Source of the DNA: a virus
Length of the DNA: 64,000 nt
IMG/VR virus record: IMGVR_UViG_3300045972_000140
Span: 62,687-126,686 of that record
Reading direction: 5' to 3' (one strand)
Of the stretch, positions 12,025 through 14,220 are shown one piece after another (position 1 is the first letter of the stretch; each line of letters opens with the position of its first letter). Position numbers and translations under genes: made by a program. The notes under the pieces are model-generated. The model was not told where the DNA came from. It did not search any database and was given only the letters and a program-made list of their open reading frames with translations.

Positions 12025-12251
12025 GGTCCCTAATAGTATTACCACCCGACCAATTAGGCGACCTCATTGATTCATTTGAATCAGAGTCGGAATCACTTAA
12101 AGAGCAGATATCTGATCTTTGTTTTCATATGAGGGGTGGTTTAGAGTATGACTCTGCGTGGGGTATGAGTTTCATGGATAGGGAAATAGCGATTAGAGTA
12201 ATAAACAGACGTCTAAAAGAACAGAACCCTGGCGGTAAAGAATACTTGTAG
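12012..12251 (+). CDS. -1 frame extension of the gp26-like gene (gp51-like / gpGT-like), absent from the ORF track
   Basis: Slippery heptamer A AAT TTT at 12012-12018. The -1 frame is open to TAG 12249-12251: FIRSLIVLPPDQLGDLIDSFESESESLKEQISDLCFHMRGGLEYDSAWGMSFMDREIAIRVINRRLKEQNPGGKEYL. Confidence 0.7.
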   Translation, partial: KFFIRSLIVLPPDQLGDLIDSFESESESLKEQISDLCFHMRGGLEYDSAWGMSFMDREIAIRVINRRLKEQNPGGKEYL

Positions 12252-12259
12252 TATATAAA

Positions 12260-12838
12260 ATGCATAAGAAAATTGAGATAAACGAATTAGATATTCCTAA
12301 AGATGATATTGAGTGCTGGGAAAGATATCCTAAGCATAGATGGGTTTACGATATTTCGCGATTACTAGATTCGCAGAATATCAAGTGGAGTCCATTCAAG
12401 ACAATTGATTTGCAAAATATGGTTGCTAATATGTATCTAGAATCAATAGGTTCTGTTGCATATGCACCAGGATGGATTTATATAAACAATCCATTTGGGA
12501 AGCAGATACTCTCAGAGGTATACATCATTAAAGGAGAGATTAGGCATATACGATATATCGATAATATCACTAGAGCTCAATTAACAGATAATGTGGGAGA
12601 TATAGAGTTACGCATCAGCGCATTCGTAACAATGCACTTTCAGAAGTTCACAGGTGTAATCTCAGTAGAAACCATCGGTAACGACATATATTCTATTCGT
12701 TTAAAACCTATTTCAGGGATATCCTTAACTATAGATGCTAATATAGCAAAACTGGTAAAGAGAATATATAAGAAAAACGATTTAGTTCATATAAACGGTC
12801 TTACAGACCGTACACTGCATGAATCTTATGCTTCGTGA
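12260..12838 (+). CDS. Hypothetical protein
   Basis: 192-aa ORF with ATG start; no motif I can assign with confidence. Confidence 0.7.
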   Translation: MHKKIEINELDIPKDDIECWERYPKHRWVYDISRLLDSQNIKWSPFKTIDLQNMVANMYLESIGSVAYAPGWIYINNPFGKQILSEVYIIKGEIRHIRYIDNITRAQLTDNVGDIELRISAFVTMHFQKFTGVISVETIGNDIYSIRLKPISGISLTIDANIAKLVKRIYKKNDLVHINGLTDRTLHESYAS

Positions 12839-12889
12839 ACTCAGCATCGATTCATTTGTGTAATTTTTTAGAGATATAAAGACTAAGAA

Positions 12890-13310
12890 TAAATGCTTGA
12901 CGGTAGAGCCAGAGAAAGGGTATACAAACAAAGATTAAAAAATAACCGTTGTTTGTATACCCTTTCTGTTGCGCATTTGACAGCGGCACCAGAGACTAAA
13001 CAGACTATTCAAGAAGCATTGGATTGATTATGTCAGCTTCACGCTATTACGCGGCCTGTAAGGGGGAATCAGTAGGTTTGCCTACAACATCCTCGCGGCT
13101 TTAATTGTAACTCCTCTTAGTCAGTTGTTACGCCGCTCGCGGGCCATACCTTACTTTCACTTACCCGCGACAAATTTTAACTCGATCTACTTACTTTGTC
13201 CACTGGGACATTTCTTTAAACCTTGCCACTGTGCATCCAGCGGTCCTGACTGTTGCGCTCCATCCCGAACGACGCGTCACCCGATATAAAGGTTCGGCAA
13301 CCTGTAATGC
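12890..13310. ncRNA. Candidate large structured non-coding RNA (or structured origin region)
   Basis: No ORF of 60 aa or more; locally GC-richer; many nested complementary pairs (see findings). No recognisable tRNA, tmRNA or RNase P hallmarks. Confidence 0.4.
12913..12967. repeat. Perfect 19-bp inverted repeat
   Basis: AGAAAGGGTATACAAACAA (12913-12931) and TTGTTTGTATACCCTTTCT (12949-12967), with a 17-nt spacer. Confidence 0.95.
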
Positions 13311-13358
13311 ATTGAAATTCTATGTGCTGATTGTAGCTTGTTTGATTTTGTTTGTAAA

Positions 13359-13450
13359 GATTTTCGTTTAGATTTGGGTAGATTTGTAAAATTTTAATTA
13401 TTGTGTATGATTTTTAGTTAGATTCGTGTGGATTTATAAAATTTTATATA
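13359..13450 (+). repeat. Imperfect 50-bp-period tandem repeat with helically spaced GATT motifs
   Basis: gattttcgtttagatttgggtagatttgtaaaattttaatta (13359) aligns with gatttttagttagattcgtgtggatttataaaattttatata (13409). Confidence 0.7.
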
Positions 13451-13567
13451 TGCTATTGCTTTAGACGTAAGGCGCATCAACCCTACAATTTTTATTTAAA
13501 ACAACTTTTGTTGTTGCTGTATTTTATCTCTATTACTGACGTACTATCGACAAAATTGGCATAAATT

Positions 13568-13593
13568 AAAATAGCGCAGTTTTGCGCTATTTT
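13568..13593. terminator. Intrinsic terminator downstream of the endolysin gene
   Basis: AAAATAGCGCA-GTTT-TGCGCTATTTT. Confidence 0.85.
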
Positions 13594-13601
13594 ATTGCTC
13601 A

Positions 13602-14177
13602 TTAGTCGAAAGAATTGCTAGAATCTGTTACAAACGCACGCATCTCGTTCACACGACGTAACCACCCTTTTAAGTACTTTCCTTGATCGGGACGTTTTGC
13701 CACAATTGCGTTGTAATATGCCACACGCGCATCACACACTGCATTGCACAGTGTTATTTCATCCTGCTGTTGAATAAGTGCAATAGTTGCAGGGCCAATA
13801 TCTCCATCTGCTGCTGCACCAACTGTTGTTTGTACAAACTTAGCCATTCTGCCTACGCCGTGATTAATACAGCCGTCGAAGTGTAAAGCAGCAAGGCGCG
13901 GTGGCATGTTATTGCAGTCCCCAAGCAACCAATATTCTTTGTAATAAATGCGGAGTACAGCATCCCAATCTAATCCTGCTACGTCTAATTGCAAGTGGGA
14001 ATTCTTAGCAATACCGTATTTTGTTTCACCACCTGGGTCTGTAGGATCATTTACGTATCCACAGGCACGTTTATTCGTACCATCGCGTGCACCAGGTGCA
14101 TCTACATTCCAAAATCCGCCAACTTCGTAAAGCATAGCGTGGTCAACTGCCTTTAAATATGATGTTTCGTATGCCAT
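13602..14177 (-). CDS. Endolysin, glycoside hydrolase family 108 with C-terminal peptidoglycan-binding domain
   Basis: GYVNDPTDPGGETKYGI, FDGCINHG, DGDIGPAT, KYLKGWLRRV. Confidence 0.9.
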   Translation of the reverse strand: MAYETSYLKAVDHAMLYEVGGFWNVDAPGARDGTNKRACGYVNDPTDPGGETKYGIAKNSHLQLDVAGLDWDAVLRIYYKEYWLLGDCNNMPPRLAALHFDGCINHGVGRMAKFVQTTVGAAADGDIGPATIALIQQQDEITLCNAVCDARVAYYNAIVAKRPDQGKYLKGWLRRVNEMRAFVTDSSNSFD

Positions 14178-14199
14178 ATGTTCTCCATTCTAGTTTTGC

Positions 14200-14220
14200 T
14201 ATTTATCTAATTGGTAAATA
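14200..14220. promoter_or_regulatory. Back-to-back late-type promoters (GATAAATA on -, GGTAAATA on +)
   Basis: TATTTATC at 14200-14207 and GGTAAATA at 14213-14220, between the divergent endolysin and resolvase genes. Confidence 0.55.

Follow-up and report, generated by a model that had tools for sequence, protein, structure and literature searches.

A candidate family of large structured non-coding RNAs in a clade of uncultivated T4-like jumbo phages

What does the longest gene-free stretch of a densely coding phage genome specify, if not a protein? Large, intricately folded non-coding RNAs are rare, and nearly every class that is understood is a ribozyme, the core of a ribonucleoprotein or, lately, a self-assembling RNA cage. 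In the window (the whole stretch of 64,000 nucleotides of viral DNA analysed here), the longest interval without a gene, counting open reading frames (ORFs) of at least 100 amino acid residues, is 763 nt long and lies at 12839-13601. Its left neighbour is a 192-aa ORF on the plus strand that ends at 12838 and belongs to the baseplate operon; its right neighbour is the gene of a GH108 endolysin on the minus strand, which ends at 13602. A PDDEXK/RusA-like resolvase and an SbcC-like nuclease are encoded next to the locus, and 13330-13450 is a C-free AT-rich tract with a GC skew of up to +0.6. A preliminary description, made from the window alone, had placed in this gap a densely paired element that is richer in GC than its flanks. 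Both the position and the composition hold, as the GC content is 0.45-0.49 across 12950-13324 compared with 0.31-0.37 leftward and 0.27-0.30 rightward. That description had proposed a structured phage non-coding RNA and had left its strand undetermined; conservation and covariation support the proposal, and the strand can now be given as minus. We conclude with good, though not full, confidence that 12896-13303 is the gene of an undescribed family of large structured non-coding RNAs of about 410 nt, which is found in a clade of jumbo phages and, in divergent form, in other mobile DNA. The minus strand, the spread of the family, the pseudoknotted consensus fold and the co-varying twin repeats are new over the preliminary description.

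The matching loci, 107 in number, reduced to 71 distinct sequences, and 53 of these were full-length; together with the window copy they form the 54 distinct copies of alignments A2 and A4. Nearly all of the 53 further copies sit between the same two convergent genes in uncultivated T4-like jumbo phages, on contigs of up to 385 kb, and in 51 of the 53 loci both neighbours are complete genes that converge. Among 12 loci fetched through the neighbouring 192-aa protein, nhmmer found the element in 11, with E values from 1e-28 to 1e-74, and blastn gave 67-82% identity over 280-413 nt in 8 of the loci fetched in this way, while the protein itself is just 52-65% identical. The RNA element is conserved more strongly than the neighbouring protein gene. 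The locus closest by the 192-aa protein (L003, 65%) showed no detectable homology to the RNA core. We define the family by the 5' start GGUUAGCGAGCC, an invariant 18-nt loop, a 20-nt loop with two GGUAUG motifs, a pseudoknot, and a 3' module composed of a repeat, a hairpin and a second repeat; the window copy carries every one of these features.

A decayed or unusual protein-coding gene can practically be dismissed as the source of this conservation. Short ORFs of 44-54 aa do exist in the window, but no ORF recurs in the gaps of the first 12 loci, and the longest frame without a stop is not conserved, its length varying from 53 to 146 aa between copies. Moreover, the substitutions among the copies are pairwise compensatory, and the insertions fall in hairpin tips. 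In the 71-pair structure on the minus strand, 95.4% of the alignment cells pair, compared with 33-44% in controls with slid partners, and 56 of the 71 pairs show changes on both sides (568 cells). The covariation score is 0.449 versus 0.175 for shuffles, and none of 500 shuffles was as high on all five measures. Because the sequences are related, shuffle controls overstate the significance, and the slid-partner control is the fairer one. Of the 62 pairs that RNAalifold predicted, 37 had changed on both sides. At the level of comparative evidence, these results confirm that 12896-13303 is a conserved structured RNA rather than a series of chance hairpins, and about 16 helices and one pseudoknot have been kept through compensatory changes.

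Two of the checks that had been proposed from the window alone, namely covariation and a folding energy better than that of shuffled sequence, gave opposite answers. The z-scores for 12880-13320 are -3.3 on the plus strand and -3.0 on the minus strand, but these values are due to a 19-bp hairpin near the left end. For the core alone (12990-13305, minus strand), z is -0.16 against dinucleotide shuffles, 41 of 100 of which fold as well; the expected energy is thus missing. Covariation, in contrast, is strongly positive, and as we take it as decisive, the reading as a structured RNA is upheld despite the null energy of the core.

Read on the minus strand, the conserved core (12996-13303) begins near 13302-13303 with GGUU. 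Its first helix in 5'-to-3' order is 13294-13298/13279-13283, followed by 13270-13278/13248-13257, 13238-13243/13226-13231, and 13217-13222/13184-13189, the fourth of which encloses 13206-13209/13198-13201. Then come 13164-13170/13137-13143, 13132-13136/13095-13099 (enclosing 13127-13131/13107-13111) and 13090-13094/13063-13067 (enclosing 13081-13084/13071-13074). The last domain, closed by 13054-13057/13002-13005, encloses 13051-13053/13042-13044 as well as 13036-13041/13013-17. Six of the complementary pairs picked out earlier by inspection correspond to helices with covariation support: the 19-bp hairpin, GTAGG/CCTAC at 13072-13085, GCGGC/GCCGC and the GTAAC/GTTAC that it encloses, TCGCGGG/CCCGCGA, and TGTCC/GGACA. 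Four do not. Covariation gives no support for AATGCTT/AAGCATT or GACAAA/TTTGTC; one side of TGACA/TGTCA varies without compensation while the other is invariant; and in place of CCGAAC/GTTCGG, covariation pairs 13294-13298 with 13279-13283.

The pseudoknot is formed by 13117-13120, its 5' strand, in the loop of hairpin 13107-13131, and by 12996-12999, immediately 3' of the final multi-helix domain; the pairing emerged from helix scans and mutual information. Its two strands read CUGAA/UUCAG in the consensus, and one subgroup has switched to UAUAAC/GUUAUA. On A2, 93.3% of the cells pair and 4 of 5 pairs have changes on both sides; on A4, 88.3% of the cells pair and two pairs have changed on both sides.

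Several loops of 12-20 nt are invariant. The 18-nt hairpin loop at 13018-13035 on the minus strand, TTGGATTGATTATGTCA in the plus-strand reading, is invariant in the alignment columns and is the most conserved stretch of the family; a search of the 126.7-kb record that tolerated up to 3 mismatches found it at this one place only. The 20-nt hairpin loop at 13144-13163 (minus strand) is nearly invariant and contains the two copies of GGUAUG. A helix scan found six pairs, GGGUAU/AUACCC, between this loop and the 3' module, 98% of them canonical. A second pseudoknot or a switch formed by the 20-nt loop and AUACCC of the 3' module is therefore possible, but the columns are invariant and offer no covariation. 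The loop at 13258-13269, in the plus-strand reading, resembles what we take to be loop C of 5S rRNA; this likeness was dropped, as about half of the copies have two departures from that consensus.

The assignment of the strand rests on the wobble pairs. In the five best helices, the plus-strand reading contains 0 G.U cells and 91 A.C cells, and A.C on the plus strand corresponds to G.U on the minus strand; because these are the only non-Watson-Crick cells in the best helices, the alignments place the functional RNA on the minus strand, the same strand as the upstream endolysin gene. Across pairs with at least two Watson-Crick types, the plus strand has 143 A.C/C.A cells versus 57 G.U/U.G cells. 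Pairing on the minus strand reaches 100% at 13137-13170 and 99.6% at 13095-13136. Extra pair types number 131 on the minus strand, compared with 107.5 in shuffles (0 of 500 as high), and 117 on the plus strand, compared with 119.7 in shuffles (382 of 500 as high). The RNAalifold energy is -58.65 for the minus strand versus -35.04 for the plus strand; the minus strand is G-rich, which in itself favours lower energies.

We also considered that the functional RNA might be the plus strand, continuing from the baseplate operon through the 192-aa gene. In total, 91.2% of the cells pair on that strand, its fold has the z-score of -3.3 when the hairpin is included, all 54 copies share one invariant G.U pair (A2 columns 222-255), and G.U also occurs at some terminal pairs. 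Against this stand the lack of G.U in the best helices, the higher total pairing of the minus strand with several helices at 100%, and a diversity of pair types that beats shuffles on the minus strand only; in addition, the neighbouring genes of one copy found elsewhere (L185) run with the minus-strand reading. We regard the plus strand as very improbable, and on the minus strand the invariant G.U becomes a bulged or mismatched A. A plus-strand assignment based on the G.U pairs in the RNAalifold output was overturned by the per-pair tally, the reverse-strand helix scan and the minus-strand count. Wobble asymmetry can thus reverse the impression of strand left by a few conspicuous G.U pairs.

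Beyond the core, the 3' module of the RNA consists of two direct repeats flanking a hairpin. Repeat R1 lies at 12896-12915 (TTGACGGTAGAGCCAGAGAA in the plus-strand reading), R2 at 12976-12996 (TTTGACAGCGGCACCAGAGAC, likewise plus), and the hairpin between them, with the invariant segment AAGGGTAT, at 12913-12967. R1 always bears the same variant as R2, with parallel changes in many lineages: although A2 columns 28/115, 29/116, 30/117 and 33/120 vary between copies, the two members match in all 54 copies for each of the first three pairs and in 53 of 54 for the last. The spacing of R1 and R2 ranges from about 50 to 80 bp. At 0 mismatches, their motif occurs exactly twice in the window; allowing up to 2 mismatches raises this to 7, versus 6.6 expected, and a role as a general promoter was rejected. 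Neither exact 6-mer complements in the 700 nt to each side nor 8-mers allowing G.U on the minus strand revealed a partner in cis at a consistent position. Pairing of the repeats with the 18-nt loop or the block-B loop was discarded because those loops stay unchanged when the repeats change. For the plus strand, RNAalifold proposed a long-range helix joining R2 to GCUGUU; this was also rejected, as the R2 variants are uncompensated and mutual information favours a local hairpin (A1 columns 441-469 and 449-462).

The hairpin had been noticed earlier as a perfect 19-bp stem. It does correspond to a supported helix, but the perfect stem belongs to the lineage of the window; the hairpin is long in 12 of 54 copies and has a 7-bp stem in 42. 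In the same way, the direct repeat CTGTTGCGC is present as reported, but only the lineage of the window has its first copy. A scan for intrinsic terminators did not flag the 19-bp hairpin on either strand; there is no U run behind the stem, which is rich in A+U.

Several features would also suit a DNA element: the pair of co-evolving direct repeats, which would be expected if a single protein reads both sites, the perfect 19-bp palindrome, the C-free AT tract with its GC skew, and the adjoining resolvase and nuclease genes. Such an element would be a replication origin or a recombination hot spot, with the repeats as iterons, the palindrome as cleavage site, the AT tract as unwinding element and the structured part as a primer transcript. 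T4 oriF/oriG and ColE1 RNA II are models for an origin of this kind. We judge this reading to be most unlikely, because duplex DNA would not give the asymmetry between G.U and A.C, which is characteristic of RNA. Furthermore, there are just two repeats, their spacing varies, and the palindrome is reduced to 7 bp in most copies. On the strand of the RNA, the AT tract precedes the core and is poor in G, the opposite of the preference of R-loops. Known primer RNAs are far less elaborate than the present structure.

If 12896-13303 is a gene, where does its transcription start? A sigma-70-like promoter, TTTACA-17-TACAAT (10 of 12 matches), is located at 13330-13358 on the minus strand, and transcription from it would start about 20-25 nt before the conserved core. 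The closest copies, L197 and L219, have the same arrangement, and L186 has a comparable one; it is absent in the others. In other copies, a CACAAT-like hexamer occurs 2-16 nt before GGTT (34 of 44 distinct leaders). That 13330-13358 acts as a promoter is inferred from a pattern match only. All 13 sequencing runs listed for 12200-14200 are of DNA, with no RNA run among them. We infer, in the absence of expression data, that the RNA has its own promoter just upstream of 13303, sigma-70-like in the window's lineage and CACAAT-like elsewhere. A second conserved block at 13440-13545, between the endolysin end and the core, contains the box GATAAAATA (13520-13528, minus strand) and hairpins at 13500-13515 and 13467-13472/13481-13486. 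Of the 44 distinct leaders, 38 contain a TAAAATA box; elsewhere in the window, this box does not recur as a general motif. Both hairpins of the block covary, with the strand unresolved, and the block could serve as a 5' leader or as a promoter region, or could be an element of its own. Right after the endolysin stop, a hairpin with U-rich arms (13565-13595) looks, by eye only, like a bidirectional terminator that parts the endolysin message from what follows; a terminator scan did not flag it, nor did a scan find an intrinsic terminator after the RNA on the minus strand. Transcription may also proceed from, or together with, the conserved block after this putative terminator, which is likewise an inference.

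These features bear on another explanation, in which the same RNA has no gene of its own. It would instead be a processed product of the late endolysin message, from its 3' untranslated region, and would act in cis or after release. The RNA follows the endolysin gene in the same orientation in 46 of 53 loci, and 5 of the 7 loci without this arrangement have a contig end within 230 nt. The late motif GATAAATA, also found before many genes, lies about 25 nt before the endolysin start, and the conserved block and the G-poor tract connect the endolysin gene and the RNA. However, the hairpin with U-rich arms stands between the two, promoter-like boxes occur just before the core, and three copies (L185, L224 and L229) carry the RNA without an endolysin neighbour. 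We consider a dependent 3' untranslated region improbable, without excluding it. The late motif was also tried as the promoter of the RNA element and rejected, as it is missing ahead of the element.

Does the RNA belong to a known class? Against Rfam 15 at the gathering score, no family matched anywhere in the 64-kb window. When the threshold was relaxed to E <= 10 for 12700-13700, the 19-bp hairpin drew miRNA-like noise and nothing else matched; 11 further members had no family in common at E <= 5, and the copies from a metagenome-assembled genome (MAG) and the weak-match loci gave nothing usable at E <= 0.1. The GOLLD, ROOL, HEARO and OLE models had no match in the window or in 12700-13700, and none was common to the 11 further members. 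ARAGORN predicted 0 tRNA or tmRNA genes in the window and no Rfam tmRNA model matched; no bacterial, archaeal or nuclear RNase P RNA model matched the window or the 11 members; and no model of a group I or II intron matched, the flanking genes being complete. The earlier view that hallmarks of tRNA, tmRNA, RNase P and introns are lacking and that the element cannot be assigned to GOLLD or ROOL is thus borne out, and the Rfam scan proposed at that time yields no known family. Jumbo phages carry genes of the tmRNA and RNase P RNA type, and about 400 nt with pseudoknots is within the range of these two RNAs. One could therefore suppose a highly diverged tmRNA, RNase P RNA, group I intron, 6S RNA, GOLLD or ROOL that the models missed. 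With no match over the region even at E = 10, none common to the members, no tmRNA found by ARAGORN, and complete flanking genes that exclude an intron, we see very little room for this. We found no published description of the RNA; supplementary candidate lists that our search did not cover could hold fragments of it.

The element is not confined to the endolysin locus. L185 keeps it, including the repeats, beside genes for a P-loop kinase, PhoH, DnaJ and ClpB. A divergent element is present twice in one Burkholderiales MAG, where one copy adjoins two tyrosine integrases. The covariance model of the 5' domain scores 122.7 bits for L140, 85.1 bits for L224 and 76.9 bits for L185. A loop resembling the 18-nt loop is found in L224 and L229, and the MAG copy L229 keeps the GGUAUG motif of the 20-nt loop. 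Of 151 Burkholderiales genomes sampled, 4 had a match at E <= 0.01, which is convincing only in G001. Weak covariance-model matches in L231, L232 and L228 (18-21 bits) were rejected as false, being coding-like and without the family motifs; a further weak match, L230, was neither accepted nor dismissed. The loci L133-L135, L146-L148, L165, L171, L175, L187, L193 and L199, as well as L213, L220, L225 and L226, match only the 24-base search pattern and are otherwise dissimilar; by our own estimate, about a dozen chance matches are expected from the information content of this pattern. Among GenBank phages, blastn gave no match with either the window copy or the L010 copy. The closest cultured relative is PA5oct, with a portal protein 58.6% identical; its syntenic 19.6 kb had no match at E <= 10 by nhmmer with all filters off, and its whole record had none at E <= 1 with covariance model R1.

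As for function, we infer that the RNA acts in trans. An RNA-protein scaffold is the mechanism that we find most likely, and we hold it only tentatively. The ornate core would display the invariant loops, and the twin repeats would offer two sites for one phage-encoded factor or a dimer, although protein binding is pure inference. The specificity of this factor would drift between lineages, and AUACCC of the 3' module could pair with either the local hairpin or the GGUAUG loop and so form a switch. A ribozyme appears unlikely, and a self-assembling RNA-only particle like ROOL or GOLLD even more so. A broader speculation, possible but doubtful, is that the RNA represents a new class of ornate trans-acting RNA machine, a ribozyme or ribonucleoprotein core, with a lineage-specific partner for 3' address repeats. 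Identical, fast-evolving repeats that are read by or paired with a partner would make the RNA a programmable element and not a passive structure.

The comparative support is unusually clean, resting on 54 distinct copies in which over 50 pairs show compensatory change. Because of this support, the fixed genomic place in an environmental jumbo-phage clade and the divergent copies in other mobile DNA, the RNA is a well-defined target for work on structure and function. The parallel evolution of R1 and R2 is a testable puzzle and points to a specific partner.

Among the closest known systems, the lambdoid nut sites are comparable to the twin repeats: the nut signal, a short stretch of RNA or DNA, occurs twice per genome, both copies change together between phages, and one phage protein reads both. 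R1 and R2 resemble them as a short signal in two copies that change together. Unlike nut sites, however, they belong to the 3' end of a structured RNA, separated by 50-80 nt, have no boxB-like hairpin inside each repeat and have no known reader protein. With regard to data source and kind of evidence, the present family is similar to the structured-RNA candidates of 29-151 nt that Fremin and Bhatt (2023; PMC10690425) obtained from IMG/VR by covariation in phage intergenic regions; the accessible part of that paper does not describe the 410-nt architecture, and single hairpins of the present RNA could be among its candidates. For PA5oct, the available part of the published account lists four unexplained non-coding RNAs of 236-619 nt defined by RNA-seq (PMC7318152). 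They are similar in being unexplained non-coding transcripts of a related jumbo phage, but as listed there they lie at other positions (8263, 21951, 103065 and 246116). GOLLD and ROOL, often carried by phages and prophages, are likewise large, multi-helix, pseudoknotted non-coding RNAs that first came to light in metagenomes; their loops are strongly conserved and their function is not known. According to the portion of the cryo-EM report available to us, both assemble into RNA-only multimers (10.1101/2024.12.08.627333). The present RNA differs from them in its smaller size (about 410 nt), its twin co-varying repeats, the absence of a match to their models and the absence of adjoining tRNA genes, none of which occur in the window. 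The partner of R1 and R2 would provide an experimental handle of a kind that GOLLD and ROOL lacked for years.

The source record (126.7 kb; 32% complete according to CheckV) has the gene set of a T4-like myovirus, including a Gp20-type portal, a gp26-like baseplate hub, a GH108 endolysin, a PDDEXK/RusA-like resolvase, and an SbcC-like nuclease. The nearest cultured relative by portal protein is the Pseudomonas jumbo phage PA5oct (58.6% identity). The RNA element (12896-13303) lies in the largest gene-free interval of the window (12839-13601), and the GC content increases to 0.45-0.49 across 12950-13324. The genes on both sides of this gap are convergent: on the left (plus strand), a 192-aa ORF that matches no family, and on the right (minus strand), the GH108 endolysin. 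As both genes are complete, an intron was ruled out. No Rfam family matched the element, and neither a tRNA nor a tmRNA was found in it. These results agree with the preliminary description, which had placed the element in a long, GC-richer non-coding gap and had seen in it no hallmarks of a tRNA, tmRNA, RNase P, or intron. Another 235 nt without a long ORF (12025-12259) lie between the hub gene and the 192-aa ORF.

Homologous loci were first gathered through the 192-aa protein, which gave 12 loci with 52-65% amino-acid identity. The gap DNA is conserved in 11 of them, with 67-82% identity across 280-413 nt in eight. No ORF recurs in the gaps of these 12 loci, and a protein-coding gene was thus ruled out. 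Viral, metagenome, and genome contigs were next searched with two short patterns taken from the conserved blocks. An nhmmer profile used as a filter left 107 loci, representing 71 distinct sequences, of which 53 were full-length. As the largest carrier contigs reach 362-385 kb, the carriers are jumbo phages. The 192-aa gene lies on the left in 51 of the 53 full-length loci. The endolysin gene lies on the right, on the same strand as the RNA, in 46; in five of the other seven, the contig ends within 230 nt. Two unrelated bacterial contigs (L225:4650-5263 and L187:5406-6024) also match the 24-base search pattern, about 440 nt upstream of a tRNA gene pair. They have no other similarity and were rejected as homologues; we attribute the match to chance, followed by inheritance within one lineage.

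The element had been described as densely base-paired, with a folding z-score and covariation in the syntenic gap as checks. The folding energy gave little support: the whole stretch has a z-score of about -3 on either strand, owing to its perfect 19-bp hairpin, but the core (12990-13305, minus strand) has a z-score of -0.16. By itself, folding energy carries little weight, and the comparison among copies is decisive. From the first 30 copies, RNAalifold predicted 62 pairs, of which 37 have changed on both sides. In the plus-strand alignment of 54 distinct copies (A2), 91.2% of the cells of a 77-pair structure are paired, versus 31-40% when the partners are slid by 1-3 columns, and 60 pairs show double changes. 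In the minus-strand alignment of 54 copies (A4), the corresponding values for a 71-pair structure are 95.4% versus 33-44%, with double changes in 56 pairs (568 cells) and a covariation score of 0.449 versus 0.175 in shuffles. The covariation check was therefore positive, and the description of a densely paired structured RNA held. Mutual-information and helix scans refined the RNAalifold prediction and added a pseudoknot between the loop of the hairpin at 13107-13131 and 12996-12999, in which one subgroup has UAUAAC/GUUAUA in place of CUGAA/UUCAG.

A plus-strand reading, based on the few conspicuous G.U pairs, was overturned by a per-pair tally. Where plus-strand pairs show two or more Watson-Crick types, A.C/C.A accounts for 143 cells and G.U/U.G for 57; the five best helices contain 91 A.C cells and no G.U. 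Since an A.C cell of the plus strand reads as G.U on the opposite strand, the wobble tally favours the minus strand, and the same five helices become 98-100% canonical when the reverse complement is scanned for helices. Extra pair types numbered 131 in A4, versus 107.5 in shuffles (none of 500 shuffles as high), and 117 in A2, versus 119.7 (382 of 500 as high). RNAalifold energies were -58.65 for the minus strand and -35.04 for the plus strand, with the caveat that the G-rich minus strand is favoured anyway. As evidence to the contrary, A2 columns 222-255 hold a plus-strand G.U in every copy, which on the minus strand would be a bulged or mismatched A inside a run of C. Judging from these comparisons, the RNA is very probably encoded on the minus strand.

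On the minus strand, from 5' to 3', the conserved part starts at 13302-13303 with GGUU(A/G), followed by hairpin 1 (13298-13279), hairpin 2 (13278-13248) with the 12-nt loop UUCGGRAUGGAG, and hairpin 3 (13243-13226). A helix (13222-13217/13189-13184) then encloses a variable hairpin, the tip of which (A2 columns 387-446, window about 13201-13206) is enlarged in several lineages (among them L153/L085, L005, L144, L057, L141, and L077) by insertions of 20-45 nt, some with their own GC-rich stems. Next come a hairpin (13170-13137) with two GGUAUG motifs in its nearly invariant 20-nt loop, a helix (13136-13132/13099-13095) enclosing the pseudoknot hairpin, and a hairpin with an inner hairpin (13094-13063). 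A three-way domain (13057-13002) holding an invariant 18-nt loop is followed by the 3' strand of the pseudoknot and by the 3' module (12996-12896), consisting of repeat R2 (12976-12996), a hairpin, and repeat R1 (12896-12915). In the 3' module, an invariant AUACCC forms the complement of the GGUAUG loop; the columns concerned are constant and give no covariation evidence either way. In the lineage with a long hairpin, AUACCC is also complementary to the opposite arm of its own hairpin, and the GGUAUG loop and the hairpin type change together between two subgroups. This joint change suggests that the loop and the hairpin arm may compete for AUACCC.

The transcription signals at the RNA locus are all inferred. 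A putative sigma-70-like promoter (TTTACA-17-TACAAT/TATAAT; 13358-13330, minus strand) is present in the window and the two closest copies, and a CACAAT-like hexamer lies 2-16 nt before GGTT in 34 of 44 distinct leaders. The region 13330-13450 is AT-rich and nearly C-free on the plus strand, with a GC skew up to +0.6; it contains a tandem duplication of about 50 nt in the window and one unit in other copies, with AAACCCAAATCT on the minus strand. A replication origin acting at the DNA level is nevertheless unlikely, because the wobble asymmetry is a property of RNA and because, on the strand of the RNA, the AT tract is upstream and G-poor. A conserved upstream block (13440-13545, strand unresolved) directly after the hairpin behind the endolysin stop contains a pair of hairpins that covary, a GCGTATAGG box, and a TAAAATA box, the last of these present in 38 of the 44 distinct leaders. 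GATAAATA occurs at 13 window sites (for example, 11120, 14207 on the minus strand, 19513, 25495, 29764, 41253, and 42797) and precedes many structural genes and the endolysin gene by about 20-30 nt; it is the form that the T4 late promoter takes in this phage and is absent before the RNA element. No intrinsic terminator was found after the RNA.

Three copies occur in different gene contexts. A divergent copy (L185:1053-1536), flanked by a P-loop kinase-like gene on one side and PhoH, DnaJ, and ClpB on the other, is co-oriented with its upstream genes; it scored 77 bits with a covariance model of the 5' domain and retains the repeats and their hairpin. As this copy keeps the 3' module, the module is part of the RNA gene rather than of the adjacent baseplate operon. 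Two divergent full-length copies (L224:3830-4400 and L229:1290-1800; 85 and 22 bits) lie in one Burkholderiales MAG in surroundings of 48-54% GC, one of them adjoining two tyrosine integrases. In both, the 5' start and the GGUAUG loop are retained, and the 18-nt loop is present in a variant form. They also share a conserved upstream stretch, and L229 has a terminator-like hairpin followed by a U run. Among 151 Burkholderiales genomes sampled with the covariance model, only this MAG held convincing copies.

No homologue was found in GenBank phages, PA5oct included. The four published ncRNAs of PA5oct map to other places (PMC7318152). The syntenic region of PA5oct (L157:3456-4968; record 75.7-77.2 kb), about 1.5 kb from the RusA-like resolvase to the baseplate hub, has only four annotated ORFs of 38-50 aa, no homology to the RNA, and none of the four published ncRNAs (PMC7318152); it could be the site of another unannotated RNA. 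In L003, the closest locus by the 192-aa protein (65% identity), core homology was undetectable in the 800-nt gap (L003:4574-5367). Even this gap retains the upstream block, and it has its own direct-repeat pair and several GGTAT words; it may hold a replaced or very diverged RNA.

R1 and R2 have in common the plus-strand pattern yTTGACrG-N7-CAGAsm, and they change in parallel. They are identical at A2 columns 28/115, 29/116, and 30/117 in all 54 copies and at 33/120 in 53, while the first half varies between copies (TGAC, TAAC, TACC, CACC, TGCC, TGGG, and CGAC), as does the second, in the same matched way (CAGAC, CAGAG, CAGAT, CTGAG, CAGGG, and CACAG). By our own count, at least 10 parallel events occurred. 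Direct repeats cannot pair with each other; a search of 700 nt to each side gave no complementary partner, whether or not G.U was allowed, and the motif was not found elsewhere in the window. Gene conversion between the repeats is an alternative explanation of the parallel change. The simplest reading, for which there are no binding data, is that R1 and R2 are two sites for one co-evolving factor.

We found no published description of this RNA in the literature searched. In the part of an IMG/VR survey available to us, the candidates are only 29-151 nt long, and single hairpins of the RNA are possibly in its supplementary lists (PMC10690425). The function has not been shown for any of the following readings. 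The favoured reading, though less likely than not, is a scaffold that would bind a lineage-specific factor through R1 and R2; a ribozyme is improbable, and a self-assembling particle like ROOL or GOLLD is still more doubtful. Invariant long loops, a pseudoknot, compensated helices, and an independent gene that moves between contexts are typical of trans-acting ribonucleoprotein RNAs or ribozymes. We file the RNA as a new family among the large, ornate phage-borne RNAs of unknown function, with the co-evolving twin repeats as its distinctive feature.
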